Of a stretch of DNA of 64,000 bases, positions 3,668 to 45,689 are shown one piece after another. The stretch covers positions 33,668,001 to 33,732,000 of the forward strand of contig NC_086108.1 in the NCBI RefSeq assembly GCF_963921235.1, written 5' to 3'. The translations under genes and the position numbers were made by a program. Position 1 is the stretch's first letter; every line of letters begins with the position of its first letter. The notes under the pieces were generated by a model. The model was not told the DNA's origin. It saw nothing but the letters and a program-made list of their open reading frames with translations, and did no database searches. This DNA is from Mobula hypostoma (lineage: Eukaryota).

Positions 3668-6600
3668 AGAAGACCATAAGATATAGGAGCAGAAGTAGGC
3701 CATTTGGCCCATCAAGTCTGCTCCGCCATTCAATCATGGGCTGATCCAATTTTTCCAGTCATCCCCACTCCCCTGCCTTCACCCCTTACCCTTTGATGCC
3801 TTGGCTAATCAAGAACCTATCTTTGCCTTAATTACGCCCAATGACTTGGCCTCCACAGCCATTCATGGCAACAAATTTCACAGATTTACCACCCTGACTT
3901 GAGTAATTTCTCCGCATCTCTTGTTCTAAATGGACGTCCTTCAATCCTAAGGTTGTGTGCCCTTGTCCTGGACTCCCCGCCATGGGAAATAACTTTGCCA
4001 TATTTAATCTATTCAAGCCTTTTAACGTTCGGAATGTTTCCATGAAACTCCCGCTCATTCTCCTGAACTCCAGGGAGTACAGCCCAAGAGCTACAAGACG
4101 TTCCTCGTATAGTAACCCTTTCACTCCTGGAATCATTCTCGTGAATCTTCTCCGAACCCTCTCCAATGCCAGAATATCCTTTCTAAAATAAGGAGCCCAA
4201 AACTGCACACAATACTCTAAGTGTGGTCTCATGGGTGCCTTATAGAGCCTCAATATCACATCCCTGCTCTTATATTCTATACCTCTAGAAAAGAATGCCA
4301 ACATTGCATTTGCCTTCTTCACCACCGACTCAACCTGGAGGTTAATCTTTACGGTATCCTACACAAGGACTCCCAAGTCCCTTTGAATCTCTGCATTTTG
4401 AATTCTCTCCCCATCTAAATAATAGCCTTCCCATTTATTTCTTCACTAAAATGCATGACCATACACTTTCCAACATTGTATTTCATTTGCCACTTCTTTG
4501 TCCATTCCCCTAAGCTATCTAAATCTCTCTACAGGCATTCTATTTCCTCCACCTATCTTTGTATCATCAGCAAATTTAGCCAGAAATGCATTAATCCTAT
4601 AGTCCAAATCATGGACATACTTCATAAAAAGGTGCTGTCCCAACACTAACCCCTGTAAAATTCCACTGGTAACCGGCAGCCAGCCTGAATAGGATCCCTT
4701 TATTCCCACTCTGTTTTCTGCTGATCAGCCAATGCTCCACCCATGCTAATAACTCCCCTGCAATTCCGTGAGATCTTAAATGTTAAGCAGCCTCATGTGC
4801 GGCACCTTGTCAAAGGCCTTCTGAAAATCCAAGTACACCACATCTACTGCATCTCCTTTGTCTACCCTGCTTGTAATTTCCTCAAAAAATTGCAGTAGGT
4901 TAGTCAGGAAGGACTTTCCTTAACCATGCTGGCTTTGGCCAATCCTGTCATGTGCCTCCAGGTACTTCGTAATCTCATCCCTAACAATTGATTCCAACAA
5001 CTTCCCAACCACTTATGTCAGGCTAACAGGTCTATGGTTTCCTTTCAGTTGCCTCCCACCCTTCTTAAATAGCAGAGTAACAGTTGCAATTTTCCAGTCA
5101 TCAGGTACAATGCCAGAGTCTATTGATCTTTGAAAGATCATTGTTAATGCCTCTGCAATCTCTCCAGCTACTTCCTTCAGAACCCAAGGGTGTATTCCAT
5201 CTGGTCCAGGAGATTTATCCACCCTCAGACCATTAAGCTTCCTGAGTACCTTTTCAGTTGTAATTTTCACGGCACATACTTCATTTCCCTGACATTCTTG
5301 AATGTCCGGTATACTGCAGATGTCTTCCATTGTGAAGACTGATGCAAAATATGCATTCAGTTCCTCTGCCATCTCTACGTCTCTCATTACTATATTTCCA
5401 GCGTCATTTTCTATTAGTCCTATATCTATCCTCGACTCTCTTTTACCCTTTATATACTTAGAAATGCTTTTAGCATCTTCTTTGATATTAGTTGCCAGCT
5501 TCCTTTCATAATTCATCTTTTCCTTCCTCATGACCTTCTTAGTTTCCTTCTGAAAATTTTTGAGCTTCCCAATCCTCTATCTTCCCACTTGCTTTGGCTT
5601 CCTTGTATGCCCACTCTTTTGCTTTTACTTTGGCTCTGACTTCACTTGTCAGTCATGGTAACATCCTTCTTCCATTTGAAAATTTCTTATTTGGAATATA
5701 TCTGTCTTGCACTTCCCTCATTTTTCACACAAGTTCCACCCCTTGCTGCTCTGCTGTCCTTCCTGCTAATGTCCCTTTCCAGTCAACTTTGGTCAGTTCC
5801 CCTCTCATGCCATTGCAATTTCCTTTATTCCACTGAAATACTGACACATTAGAATTTAGTTTCTCCTTCTCAAATTTCAGTTGAACTCAATCATATTGTG
5901 ATCATTGTTCCCTAAGGGTTCCTTAACCTTAAACTCCCTTATCACCTCCAGAACATTGCACAACACCCAATCCAGCACAGCCAATTGCCTAGTGGGCTCA
6001 ACAACAAGCTGTTCTAAAAAGCCATCCCTTAGACATTCTACAAATTCTCTTTCCTGAAGTCCAATACTGATCTGGTTTTCCCAATCCACTTTCATGTTAA
6101 AATTCCCAATCATTATCATGACATTGTCCTTCTGACATGCCTTTTCTATCTCCTGCTATAATTTGTAATCCACATCCCAGCTGCTGTTTGGAGGCCTGTA
6201 TACAACTGCCGTTAGGGTTCTTTTACCCTTGCCATTTCTTAACTCAGCCCGTAGAGACTCTACACCTTCCAATGCTATGTCATCCCTTTCTAATGATTTA
6301 GTATTACTTCTTATACACAGGGCACACCACCCCCTCTGCCTAATATCCTATCTTCCCAATACACCGTATATACTGGGACATTCAGCTCCCAATGGCAGCC
6401 ATCCTTTAACCAAGTTTCAGAGATGGCTCCAATGTCATACTTGCCAATCTGTATCTGACTTTCAAGATCATCCATTTTATTTCTTATGCTGCGTGCATTG
6501 AAATAACATTTTCAGTCTGGTATTTTTAGCTTTCTGTTTTAACTGCACATTGCCTCTTTTGTCCTGTAACTCATCCCACTGGCTGCGATTTTGCCTCATC

Positions 6601-40640: not shown

Positions 40641-42254
40641 TGTGTCACTGCAGATCATATTCATCAAATGCTCTGTAAATTCCAAATGCTCAAGTACAAC
40701 TTGCTGCTATCAATTGCCTTCTAACGACCCTGCCAAACCTAAACTTGTACTGAACGCCTTGCAGCTCTGTTACACCAAGTACCACCACAAGCCTCACACT
40801 CCTGTCCAGCACACACTAGCTGCTTTTCAACATCATCCAGTCATGTTTTCTCACTTTTACAAGGTCCCCATTTCTTGCATTGGACAGAGATGCACACATA
40901 CTTTTAATGACACTGACCTTTGCAACAGGATTGAGGGCATAAATGGGACAATGGGATGCTGGTGCGAATAATTCTTCTTGCATGTCACCTCTGGTTTGCT
41001 TCCTAAGCTAGACTGGGCATCAGCATGGTGCTCTTACTTCCCTTATCACAACCTTAGTCTGAAGCTATAGTTTTCAGTGAAGGTAACCAAGAAGAGCATC
41101 CTAATAAGCAAGAGGGCAGTGAATCACTCAATTCTGCAGTCCATCATCAGCTCAGTTCCAGTTTAGAAGGGAATAAAGGGAGAAGCCAGAAACTAGGCAT
41201 GAGTGACTTCCAGTCAGGACAAAGAGCAAGGATGGTACCATGCCTCATCACCTCAATATGACAGAGGCCTCAGTTCTAAAGCGTTGATTGTTTCTCTGTC
41301 CACAGATACTGCCCAACTTCGAGTGTTTCCAGCACTTTTCCTATGAGAGCCCTAAAAGCTGAAGTAGCTCTCAAGTGCTCTGCACTGAGGTTAGTTTGAG
41401 AATGTTAGTAAGAAGGTTACAGGCACTGGCTGATGGTGTACATGAAATGCTGGTCTACCAGTAGGACTAACAGGGTATGTGTGTTGAGGAGCACGGAGAA
41501 GGCCTGTGCTACTTAGAGACAGTTCTTCCATTTGTAAAAAAAATGGTGATTAACCCAAATCACATGCGTCTGATGGCCAATATTAAAGCTTCTACTGTTG
41601 TGGAAGCAGTCTGGATGATGAGGAGAAACTTATATTGCTATCACACAAGACCAAAACCTACCCGGGCTCACATATTGGATCATCTCAGCTCAAAACCTTC
41701 ATTCAATATCAGGATAGTCTGAGGGAGGCTACATGGATAATGAAAACAAAGGAAGGCATTCATCCTCCTACCCATGTCACTCTTTGCTTTTACTCTGAAA
41801 TAGTTATACCTTTGTTCATTCACTTTTTCCAAAAAAAATTGTTAGCAATTGCTTATACTATACTGCAGTAAATGAACAGGTTCCCTCCGAGCAGGTTTCT
41901 GACCGCCAGCTAGCAAAGAGACTATAACCATCACCACTGTACTCCCCTTCCCATGGCCAGCCTATGAGATGTTGCATTGTTACCAGAATCACTCAAAAAT
42001 TGTGCTGCGAGTCTCTGGAAGTTTCCTGCACTACCAGGCAGAAACCTTCCAACGACAATGGTACAACAAATTCCGCATTCCGTTACTGTTTTAATTGTGC
42101 TACCTCAATGCACTGTTGTAATGAATTGATCTGCGCAAAAGTTATGCAAGACATATTTCAGTGCACCATGGTACAGGTGATAATAATGCCAGCAGGTGGA
42201 CTCCAAATTACAACAGGAGATTGAAAATCTATGTAACAAGGGAATCTTATGATA

Positions 42255-42482
42255 GTGTCAAGGTGGTTGTTGTGATGCATCTCGTGTGGTAGTGTAGTGA
42301 GTAGTGCTTGTCGTTCTCACTTTCAGCTTCTACCGCTGGCTAGCAGTCTTGCGAAAAGGAGAGTTGAATATGCAAGTTTCTCCCTGCCAGTACATAGCCT
42401 CCCTAACAGCAAGCCTCATGTAGTGCCTCCTCACTGGTGACACACAGAAAATGAACTTCTTTCAGACTCGGGCTGAACTACA
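42255..42482 (+). ncRNA. HDV-like (nested double-pseudoknot) ribozyme motif, partly decayed
   Basis: P2 TGTAGT (42419-24) / ACTACA (42477-82); P3 GCC (42425-27) / GGT (42436-38); L3 TCCTCACT; P1 3' strand GACACAC (42439-45) pairing with GTGTC (42255-59); J4/2 CTGA with catalytic-position C at 42473. Confidence 0.65.
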
Positions 42483-42888
42483 GAGAACGGGGAGGACGTC
42501 TGACTCCTGTATATGTAGCACGCAGGCCCACTGATGCAGACACACCCTGGTGTTCATGAACCAGATCCCCAGCTATGGGTAAATAGCCCCACTCCCTTGT
42601 GGGCAGCCTCGGGAGAGGCAAAAACTACGGGAGTAAACCCAGACAGCAAATCCAGAGTGGAGCTCCTAAGGCGGCTGGGCATCATTGAACAGTCTTCCAG
42701 CAGCTCCTGCAGCCAAGCTGGTAACAAGTGTATTGCTTCATAGGCTTTCCTTTGGACTACCCTGGTGAGGCCGAGAGGGGGATCTTGACGACTGGGCATC
42801 TCAGCATCTCCATACTTTCTGCCCAGGCTTGTGACGATGATCATCACCCATTGTCCTTCAAGACAGACGGATGCCAGCAACAAACACA
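42257..42888 (+). mobile_element. 632-bp non-autonomous non-LTR retroelement (RTE-like, internally deleted) with 8-bp TSD
   Basis: ATGATAGT duplicated at 42249-42256 and 42889-42896; GC-richer than its surroundings; CAA-like tail (gccagcaacaaacaca); no long ORF; interior resembles RTE-clade 5' UTRs (gggcagcctcgggagagg...gtaaaccc). Clade assignment is tentative. Confidence 0.75.
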
Positions 42889-45689
42889 ATGATAGTCATC
42901 AGGGATTTTAATATGCAAGTAGATTGGGAAAATCAAGTTGGTGCCGGATCCCAAGAGAATTTGTAGAATGCTGATGAGATGGCTATTTAGAGCAGCTTGT
43001 GGTTGAAAAGGCAATTTTGGATTGGATGATTTGTAACAAATCAGATTTGATTTAGGAGTTCAAGGTAAAGGAACCCTTGGGTGACAGTGATCATAACAAG
43101 AGAAAAAAAAAATCACCCGGGAGTTTGAGAGGGAAGATAAATTCAGATGCATCAGTATACAGTGGAGTAAATGGAATTAGAGACATGAGAGAGGAACTCC
43201 CCAAAGTCCATTGGAAGGAGACTCCAGCAAGGATGATGGCAGAACGGCAATGACTGGAGTTTCTGGGAGAAATTCGGAATGTGCAGGATAGATACATCCC
43301 AAAGTTGAAGTACTATTCTAAAGAGAATGAGGAAACTGTGGTTGACAAGGGAAGTCAAGGACAGCATAAAACCAAAGGAGAGGGCATACAATGAAACAAA
43401 TATTACTGGGAAGTTAAAGGATTGGGAAGCTTTTAGAAACCAACAGATGGCAACTAATAAGGCCATAAGGAGAGAAAATATGAAATGAAATATGAAGGGA
43501 AGCCAGCCAATAATGAGAGAATACCAAAAGTTTTCCAAATATATAAAAGTAAGGGATGAGAGTGGAACATCGGAAAATCATTCTGGAAAAGTAGTAATGG
43601 GGCAGATAAATGGCAGAGGAACTTAATTATTTTGCATCAGTTTTCACTATGGAAGACAATAGCAGAACGCCAGAAAATTCGGGAATGTCAAGGGGCAGAA
43701 GCGAATGTAGTTGCTGTTACTAAGGAGAAGGTACTTGGGAAGATGAGAGATCTGAAGGTAGCTAAACCACCTGGACCAGGGTTCTGAAAGAGGTAGCTGA
43801 AGAAATTGTGGAGGCTTTAGTAAGGATCTTTCAAGCATCATTAGATTCTGGAATGGTTCCAGAGGACTAGAAAATTGTAAATGTCACTCCATTCTTTATA
43901 AAGGGAGGGAGCCAGAAGAAAGGAAATTATAGGCCATTTAGCCTGACCTCAGTGGTTGGGAAGATGTTGGAGTCGATTGTTAAGGAAGTGGTTTCTGGGT
44001 TCTTGGAGGCACATGATAAAATAAGCGAAAGTCAGCATGGTTTCCTTAAGGGGAAAAATTTTGCCTGATAAATCTGCTGGAATTCTTTGAGGAAATAATA
44101 GGCAAGATAGACAAAGGAGAGTCAGCAGTTGTTGTTTACTTTGGTTTTCAGAAGGCCTTTGACAGTGCCACACAAGGCTGCTTAACAGCACAAGAGCTCT
44201 CGACAGCATGGATAGAGGATTGGCTGACTGACCAGAGGCAGAGGGTGAGAGTAAAGAGATCCTTTCTGGTTAAATGCTCTTGACTAGTGGTGTCCTGCAG
44301 GGGTCGATGTCGAAACTGCTACTTTTCATGATATATGTGAATGATTCAGAGGATGGAATTGATGATTTTGTTGCTAAGATTATGGAGGAAATAACGATAG
44401 GTGGAGGGGCAAGTAGTATTGAGGAAGGAGTCTGCAGAAGGACAGATTGAGAGAATGATCAAAGTAGCAGATGGAATAGCGTCGGGAAGTGTATGATCAT
44501 TCATTTTGGTAGAAGGAATAAAGGTGTAGACTATTTTCTAAATGGGGAGAAAATTCAAAAGTCAGAAGTGCAAAGGGACTTGGGAATCCTTGTGCAGGAT
44601 TTCCTGAAGGTAAACTTGCAGTTTGAGTTGGTAGTAAGGGAGGCAAATGCAATGCTCACATTCATTTCAAGATGACTAGAATACAAGAGCAGGGATGTAA
44701 TGCTGAGGACTTATAAAGGCAATGGTCAGACTGCGCTTGGAGTATTGAGAGTCGATTTTGTCCCCTTATCTAAGAAAAGATGTACTGGCGTTGGACAGCG
44801 TCTGGAGGAAGTTCATGAGAATGTTTCCAGGAATGAAATGGTTAACGTGTGGGGAGTGTTTGATGTCTTTGGGCCTGTACTTGCTGGAGCTTAGAAGAAT
44901 GAGGGAATCTTATTGAAACCTGTTGAATATTGAAAGGTCTGGATAGAGTGGATGTAGGGAGAATGTTTCCTATAGTGAGTAAGTTTAAGACCAAAGTGCT
45001 CAGTCTCAGACTAGAGGGACATCCATTTAGAACAGAGAGGAAGAATTTCTTTAGCCAAGGCGTAGTGAATCTGGAATTCATTGCCACAGGCAGCTGTGAA
45101 GACCAAGTCATTGGGTATAGTTGAACTGGAGGTGGATAGATTATTGACTAATCAAACAAAAGTTAAGAGGAGAAGGCAGGAGAATGGGATAAAGAGATAT
45201 TAAATCACCCATGATAGAATGAATGGCCTAATCCTGCTCCCTTGTCTTATGGTCTAATAAAGTAAATTTCCAGTTTACAAATGGAGAAACCCTGAGAGCT
45301 AGAACAGTAAAACATACACTAGAGTTGAGCTTCAAGAGCATAACCAAGCGATTCATTTGATATGTGGTGCAAAGCAGCATTTCGATTTTACTTTTGACTG
45401 ATGGTGCTTTTTGTTTTATTTCAGACTAGTGACCAAACAAAAGCCGTGGTAAAAGGAAAGTGACAAATAGAATTGCAAGTGAACTAGAAATTGAGGTTTT
45501 GATGACTGAATTCATATTCTGATGAGTTCTTCACCGGCAAGCAGGCCAGAAAAGACCTCTGTGCTTCCTTCTCCAAATCTCCTTTCATTTTCTGGTAGCC
45601 CTGCTTTTCAGCTACTTGTTGATTATTTGATGACAAGGGCTGCATTCTCACAATTCTGTGGTTGTACAATATCCAGCCCATGAACGGCG

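Follow-up and report, generated by a model that had tools for sequence, protein, structure and literature searches.

The stretch analysed here, 64,000 nucleotides (nt) of the forward strand of contig NC_086108.1 of Mobula hypostoma (NCBI RefSeq assembly GCF_963921235.1; positions 33,668,001 to 33,732,000) and called the window below, carries at 42255-42888 an insertion that an earlier note, made from the letters of the sequence, took for a non-coding retroelement capped by a ribozyme of the kind known from hepatitis delta virus (HDV). We refer to this insertion as the window copy, and to the non-autonomous retroposon family that holds it as the short family. It sits inside a decayed fragment of an unrelated and abundant long interspersed nuclear element (LINE), which we take to be CR1-like. 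Empty sites exist: homologous copies of this host LINE are uninterrupted at the site, and one of them (L026 flank) has a single ATGATAGT, so that the 8-bp target-site duplication (TSD) proposed for the insertion is genuine. A second copy of the host LINE's endonuclease region, uninterrupted and 68% identical to the flank, lies on the minus strand at 5693-6119 of the window.

The 3' limit of the element at 42888 stands as first given, but a 5' start at 42257 is less sure; because GT at 42255-42256 is common to the TSD and the element, the start is 42255 or 42257. The family's first G (G1, equivalent to 42254) is missing from the window copy. The insertion had also been called free of open reading frames (ORFs), which holds in substance, although ATG frames of 69 and 96 amino acids are present; the ATG of the 69-residue frame was created by a deletion private to the window copy among the 18 aligned rows shown. 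Compared with the family's majority sequence, the window copy differs at 40 of 531 non-CpG and 14 of 48 CpG positions.

A genome search with the window copy gave 3114 first-look candidates, with 39 scored non-self matches at 84-87% identity, and exact-pattern searches of the genome counted 299 matches to a core pattern, 129 to a 3' pattern, and 171 and 41 to two 5' types. Two patterns each recaptured 10 of 89 copies, and from this we roughly estimate the short family at 1,500-2,700 copies. The main unbiased set comprises 89 distinct copies chosen by their 3' end alone (90 of the 129 matches were taken and one duplicate was dropped). Clear TSDs, present in 27 of the 89, are 8-17 bp long and commonest at 10-11 bp, lengths that include microhomology, and the tails are short tandem CCAA/CCA or CAT repeats. 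The short family thus has the variable TSD, the 5' truncation and the tandem tail of bipartite LINE derivatives. A test for a tRNA head found none in the family, and long terminal repeats (LTRs) were likewise absent; an LTR or solo-LTR origin was rejected on the grounds of variable TSDs, tandem tails and a non-LTR parent. Family-like sequence appeared in four contig sets with three organism labels (80% setting), which is uninformative on starts, strand and level and so provides no evidence of expression. The sequences of the copies fit neutral decay from few masters.

The autonomous partner sharing both ends that the note had predicted was found. Four copies (L204, L206, L207, L213) hold the family's 5' part and its 3' end 2.6-3.6 kb apart, and two further copies (L215, L218) hold the same two parts about 2 kb apart. 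Since the four long copies share both ends, the short element is the parent's two ends joined: the alignments show it to be the first ~580 nt and the last ~35 nt of a ~4-kb element encoding endonuclease and reverse transcriptase (RT). In L213, the 5' part is followed by blocks that resemble endonuclease and RT genes (RVT_1, E = 1e-14) and by the same 3' end; the copy closes with a CAT tail and is flanked by a TSD of 10 bp. Its reading frame is broken, and the full-length parent copies found are decayed. The 5' part of the short element stops shortly before the parent's first ATG. The route to the parent ran from a variant junction in L109 through sister deletion products to L171, and from there to 25 matches, of which 20 were taken with wider flanks.

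In L171, L175, L109, L203, L222, L296, L208, L211 and L217, the same parent has lost internal sequence in a graded series of independent deletions; most of these break near one point in the 5' untranslated region (UTR), with 15-410 nt kept between the two parts. The junction palindrome of subfamily A (42834-42847 in the window copy) looks like the CAT tail of the parent turned round. Copies with a match ending near position 443 were rejected as parent, as their continuations are unrelated; L059, L079, L085 and L086 all break off at TGAACA (family position ~441, window ~42690) before unrelated sequence, and this position is possibly an insertion or deletion hot spot. LINEs bearing DUF6451, including L151, were rejected as partner, having neither end in common. 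L151 itself (L151:1757-4945, minus strand; G000:C36) has an intact endonuclease and RT frame of 1000 amino acids, a GAA tail and a head that looks twister-type by eye.

The parent likely belongs to the RTE clade, a label that we apply because of its single ORF with APE endonuclease and RT, its microsatellite tail, the TSD range and motifs like those of RTE elements. Published RTE TSDs are given as 7-15 bp and mostly 10-12 bp (PMC6007223), and the range in the short family fits.

At the 5' end of the window copy, the motifs of the HDV fold lie where the note had placed them: P2 at 42419-42424 and 42477-42482, P3 at 42425-42427 and 42436-42438, L3 at 42428-42435, the 3' strand of P1 at 42439-42445, AG at 42446-42447, and C 42473 within GCTGA. 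Two helices were described incompletely. P2 has the 6-bp core that was named, but in the family it continues for 4 bp past a bulged A, to 10 bp in total, and the P4-like hairpin is present with its correct extent at 42451-42471. In the family majority, P1, P2, P3, P1.1 and P4 follow the nested double-pseudoknot order, and the majority L3, TCCTCGCT, and majority J4/2, GCTGA, match conserved features of the HDV consensus; of 59 copies, 46 keep the C at 42473. When the majority is folded without constraints, neither strand of P1 is taken up by another helix, so nothing there competes with P1. The J1/2 domain, of ~145 nt, has a fold z-score of only -1.6.

Table 1. Features of the window copy and its surroundings (window positions), with the loci of the related LINE family Y.
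Feature	Position	Strand	Basis or remark
Host: decayed endonuclease-coding fragment of unrelated abundant LINE, split by the insertion	42188..43300	+	Homologous copies
5' TSD, ATGATAGT; last 2 nt double as the element's G2-T3	42249..42256	+	Empty site
Copy of non-autonomous bipartite RTE-type retroposon, subfamily A	42255..42888	+	Comparison with family majority
P1 5' strand, positions 2-6	42255..42259	+	Predicted cleavage site at the family's G1 (equivalent to 42254)
J1/2 domain: predicted 7-bp P1.2 (42266-42272 with 42404-42410), inner arms 42284-42334 and 42335-42391	42266..42410	+	ViennaRNA, family majority
P2 5' strand, its 6-nt core preceded by a bulged A and a 4-nt extension	42414..42424	+	Family-majority fold
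P3, L3, P3', P1 3' strand, GG (P1.1)	42425..42447	+	CpG-decayed at 42433, 42438 and 42446
P4 hairpin	42451..42471	+	Majority CTGA..TCC-TTTC-GGA.TCAG
J4/2 with predicted catalytic C 42473, then P2 3' strand and extension	42472..42486	+	Family alignment
Rest of parent LINE 5' UTR	42487..42833	+	~80% identical to full-length copy L213; part ~70% to family Y 5' UTR
Deletion junction: (GAT)n(CAT)n palindrome, as is usual in subfamily A	42834..42847	+	
Parent LINE 3' end, about 30-35 nt	42848..42876	+	Matches partner ends at 83-93% identity
Short tandem tail, CCAA/CCA-type in family	42877..42888	+	
3' TSD, repeat of ATGATAGT	42889..42896	+	Empty site in homologous LINE copy
Family Y loci	L324-L343, e.g. 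L331 about 1040-1260 (G000:C45:85222600-85228100)		HDV-like head; abundant

We wrote an HDV descriptor after the motif had been seen, from general consensus rules, in a strict and a CpG-relaxed version. The relaxed version finds this site and no other in the 64-kb window; it matched none of 3000 dinucleotide shuffles made from the element, and shuffled sequence gave 0.03 sites per 64 kb. The strict version is matched by the family majority, by 0 of 3000 shuffles and by 11 of 165 copies, a set that includes copies picked by core patterns. By this modelling the fold is not a chance match. A search for other families with the same L3 returned the short family at 28 of 30 loci and chance matches in another LINE at the remaining two.

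The three departures of the window copy from the HDV consensus had been ascribed to CpG decay, and all three are restored in the majority (G at 42433 in 34 of 57 copies, C at 42438 in 32 of 57 and G at 42446 in 36 of 57). In the core of the window copy, the G of L3 has become A, one G of P1.1 is gone, P1 is reduced to 5 bp and G1 is absent; its predicted fold draws the P3 region into an extended helix at the 5' end. The suspicion that this copy is dead is thus supported by the lack of G1 and the three CpG decays, and we regard the window copy as probably inactive.

It had further been predicted that the 5' ends of copies would stack at the first G of P1, and they do. Among the 89 copies, 21 alignments start exactly at G1 and 34 in all at positions 1-3, with 9 at 4-12, 11 at 13-60, 9 at 61-294, 15 at 295-370 and 11 beyond; outside positions 1-3, no single start position is used by more than three copies. 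Insertions into older copies may have split them and so account for some of the late starts. The starts at 295-370 (window ~42545-42620) lie downstream of a GC-rich stretch at ~42505-42550, and this cluster could reflect a stall in reverse transcription or later insertions.

The short family divides into two subfamilies. Subfamily B (9.0% diverged), which resembles the long parent copies, has three A after P1, and its tail is mostly of CAT. Subfamily A (7.6% diverged), which includes the window copy, has four A after P1 and an ACC-type tail; it supplies 78 of the 89 tails in the unbiased set and is roughly four-fold commoner than B. The two differ in P1. GTGTC is preceded in B by GT in 17 of 30 copies and by GC in 3 of 30, the GT copies forming a perfect 7-bp P1, whereas in A it is preceded by G in 20 of 30 and by GT in none of 30. 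Subfamily A has thus lost one P1 base, which leaves a helix of 6 bp and, adjoining the G1-C pair, a bulged A. P2, P3, L3, GG, P4 and J4/2 are unchanged between the two majorities, which have no fixed core difference, and the 5' ends of A still stack at G1 despite the bulged P1. At P1 position 2, L204, L213, L285, L302 and L309 have C for T, and L088, L292 and L361 have G at the partner position; never both in one listed copy, these are a hint of an older C-G pair.

A related LINE family, which we call family Y, is 56-64% identical to L213 in amino acid sequence. Nine of 20 family Y copies share the 5' UTR body at ~70%, and eight of these have a head, which begins on its own P1 (GGTTCC/GGAACT in five of the eight). 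The order of the head is P1, an 8-bp P1.2, a distinct P2 (perfect in seven of eight), the same GCC/GGC as in the short family, an L3 that holds a hairpin, and again CTGA; its P1 is 6 bp with a G-U at the cut site, P4 is absent, and GU replaces GG. Family Y looks younger than the short family, with a non-CpG divergence of 2.9%, in a set biased towards best matches, versus 7.6%. Y and subfamily A both have CCA-type tails, and Y is a possible driver of subfamily A. Two short derivatives, L172 and L174, have a Y-like hairpin head starting GGTTGTC and share the 5' UTR body; the Y-core pattern misses them.

Taken together, we propose, with a probability of roughly 0.8, that the window copy is a decayed non-coding retroposon whose 5' end was set by an HDV-like fold and which was mobilised by the enzyme of its RTE-type parent; the observation of the earlier note is confirmed and its interpretation supported. 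A source copy would be transcribed within a longer RNA, and the ribozyme would cut 5' of G1, P1.2 and the extended P2 pinching P1 and P2 together as in drz-Agam-2. Self-cleavage at G1 likely freed the element RNA from longer transcripts in this way. The parent protein would then recognise the 3' end in trans and carry out target-primed reverse transcription, often truncating, and the inserted copies would decay neutrally. Subfamily A would have gone through the same cycle with a 6-bp P1 carrying a bulged A. That A amplified with such a ribozyme, still cutting at G1, is a tentative proposal whose chances we put somewhat short of even; if its bulged P1 did cut, the large P1.2 domain and the extended P2 plausibly rescued it.

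A number of results weigh against this proposal. The HDV-like models of Rfam gave no match, and Rfam reported no ribozyme family in the window copy, in the L306 head or in nine loci with well-preserved heads. We propose that the long J1/2 accounts for the Rfam miss. Covariation among copies was not borne out, none of 72 pairs over 165 copies having compensatory changes above chance (best uncorrected p ~0.02). Conservation in the ribozyme core is no higher than elsewhere (8.2% versus 7.6% non-CpG divergence), which is expected for dead copies, yet lends no support, and of 55 copies none has the majority base throughout the 40 core positions. By sequence, the heads of Y cannot be aligned with those of the short family, and what they offer is therefore an agreement of layout and 5'-end position, not column-wise covariation. 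For the RTE label, no named RTE sequence was among the matches returned. For subfamily A, the four long partner copies are without exception of type B and end in CAT, and no partner bearing the A tail was among the long copies found, L218 being intermediate. Finally, the P1 duplex of A is weaker than that of B by 2.9 kcal/mol (-6.2 versus -9.1 kcal/mol), and P1 mismatches have been linked to loss of cleavage (PMC3774820).

These last points would fit a different history for subfamily A, in which the ribozyme was active in the parent and in B, the bulged P1 of A was dead or very slow, and the G1 starts of A came from a single source copy with its 5' end already set there, transcribed from an internal promoter or from a host start at its edge. 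The bulge adjoins the cleavage pair, and P1 mismatches are uncommon, although one or two at the top of P1 are reported in about a quarter of R2 ribozymes (PMC3774820). A derives from one or a few masters, selection on the core is not seen, and in L1Tc/NARTc elements one stretch of 77 nt contains both promoter and ribozyme (PMC3383444). However, the remaining core is identical between the A and B majorities and the 5' ends of A are sharp to the base. Copies starting with GG also occur with CAT tails and with other junctions (L175/L304, L292), and the shortened P1 therefore passed through more than one copying round. We consider a dead or very slow A ribozyme unlikely on balance, though likelier than the two other rivals below.

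Alternatively, the P1 of A might pair in another register, with the upstream T as its first base and two mismatches at the cut site, or with an internal partner, either GTGTG at 42284, which the note had offered as an alternative, or (A/G)TGTGT at ~42368. T does precede G1 in 34 of 59 subfamily A copies versus a 37% background (p 0.001), but the same excess occurs in B (14 of 20), whose 7-bp P1 leaves no doubt about the register; it is therefore not special to A and looks like an integration feature, for which target preference, a non-templated base or microhomology could account. Five of the 89 alignments start at 27-33, as a cut at GTGTG would have it, but at least three of the five (L105, L117, L267) are due to deletion, insertion or the edge of the fetched sequence, and no start of 89 falls at 108-125. 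In the predicted fold of J1/2, moreover, a helix takes up GTGTG at 42284, and the stretch at 42368 lies in a hairpin loop. The GTGTG partner is accordingly disfavoured, and we give any change of register only a slim chance. Slimmer still is the chance that the fold is a fortuitous resemblance in an ordinary promoter-driven short interspersed nuclear element, for although Rfam is silent and covariation within the short family is missing, none of the 3000 shuffles fits the descriptor, a tRNA head is lacking, the entire 5' part is the parent LINE's 5' UTR, and three heads (A, B and Y) each begin on their own P1.

RTE ribozymes were reportedly described by Ruminski et al. in 2011. The kind of element found here is already known: ribozyme-headed bipartite derivatives are in print, and the principle has precedents in R2 SIDEs, NARTc and bipartite RTE elements. 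HDV-like ribozymes in RTE and other elements have been reviewed (PMC6765202), bipartite RTE derivatives have been called common (PMC7245038), and the 5' end kept by bipartite non-autonomous RTE elements has been linked to a ribozyme (Kojima, 2018; PMC5786205). WALLSI3 and the hagfish RTE-2/4_EBu derivatives (PMC5786205; PMC7245038) resemble the short family in being ORF-less internal deletions that keep both LINE ends and have no small-RNA head; in the short family, by comparison, the layout of the putative ribozyme is given explicitly, and 5' ends are placed at its first base. R2 SIDEs of Drosophila, in which cleavage has been demonstrated (Eickbush and Eickbush, 2012; PMC3414825), likewise combine an HDV-like ribozyme with the parent's 3' end, have no ORF and are mobilised in trans. 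However, they are few and specific to ribosomal DNA, whereas the short family is dispersed, RTE-type and over a thousand copies strong, its ribozyme predicted from sequence.

For the layout of the ribozyme, the closest comparison is drz-Agam-2-1, which is sped up by a P1.2-closed J1/2 and an extended P2 (Webb et al., 2016; PMC4908430). It shares with the short family these two features (P2 of 12 bp, and 10 bp in the short family) and short linkers; the short family differs in a J1/2 of ~145 nt with several arms, a bulged 6-bp P1 in A and the lack of an Rfam match. The Pr77 of L1Tc/NARTc (PMC3185411; PMC3383444) is, like the head described here, a 5' HDV-like ribozyme common to an autonomous and a non-autonomous element inserted at many sites. 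Unlike it, Pr77 belongs to the Ingi clade, is a compact 77-nt ribozyme and has a proven internal promoter, so that L1Tc has both promoter and ribozyme (PMC3383444). The titles and abstract openings listed in literature searches gave no description of the short family, which the Ruminski 2011 supplement or Repbase/Dfam may list, and no non-R2 HDV-like ribozyme in cartilaginous fish. The text and one supplement of PMC5786205 contain no shark-family sequence, and the main text of a 2026 preprint on widespread ribozymes mentions neither sharks nor RTE.

With the short family, dispersed non-autonomous RTE-type elements whose 5' ends are defined by a ribozyme are now seen in a large animal genome too, and many insertions supply the evidence at the level of single bases. 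Its heads and those of family Y make a natural series, from a 7-bp P1 through a bulged P1 to a head with an L3 hairpin, that could serve to test the tolerance of the HDV fold at the cleavage site and compensation by a large J1/2. If A did cut at G1, it would be a natural HDV-like ribozyme tolerating a P1 defect thought to be crippling, and one LINE lineage in one animal genome would hold three variants: a 7-bp P1 in B, a bulged P1 in A, and a 6-bp P1 with an L3 hairpin in Y.

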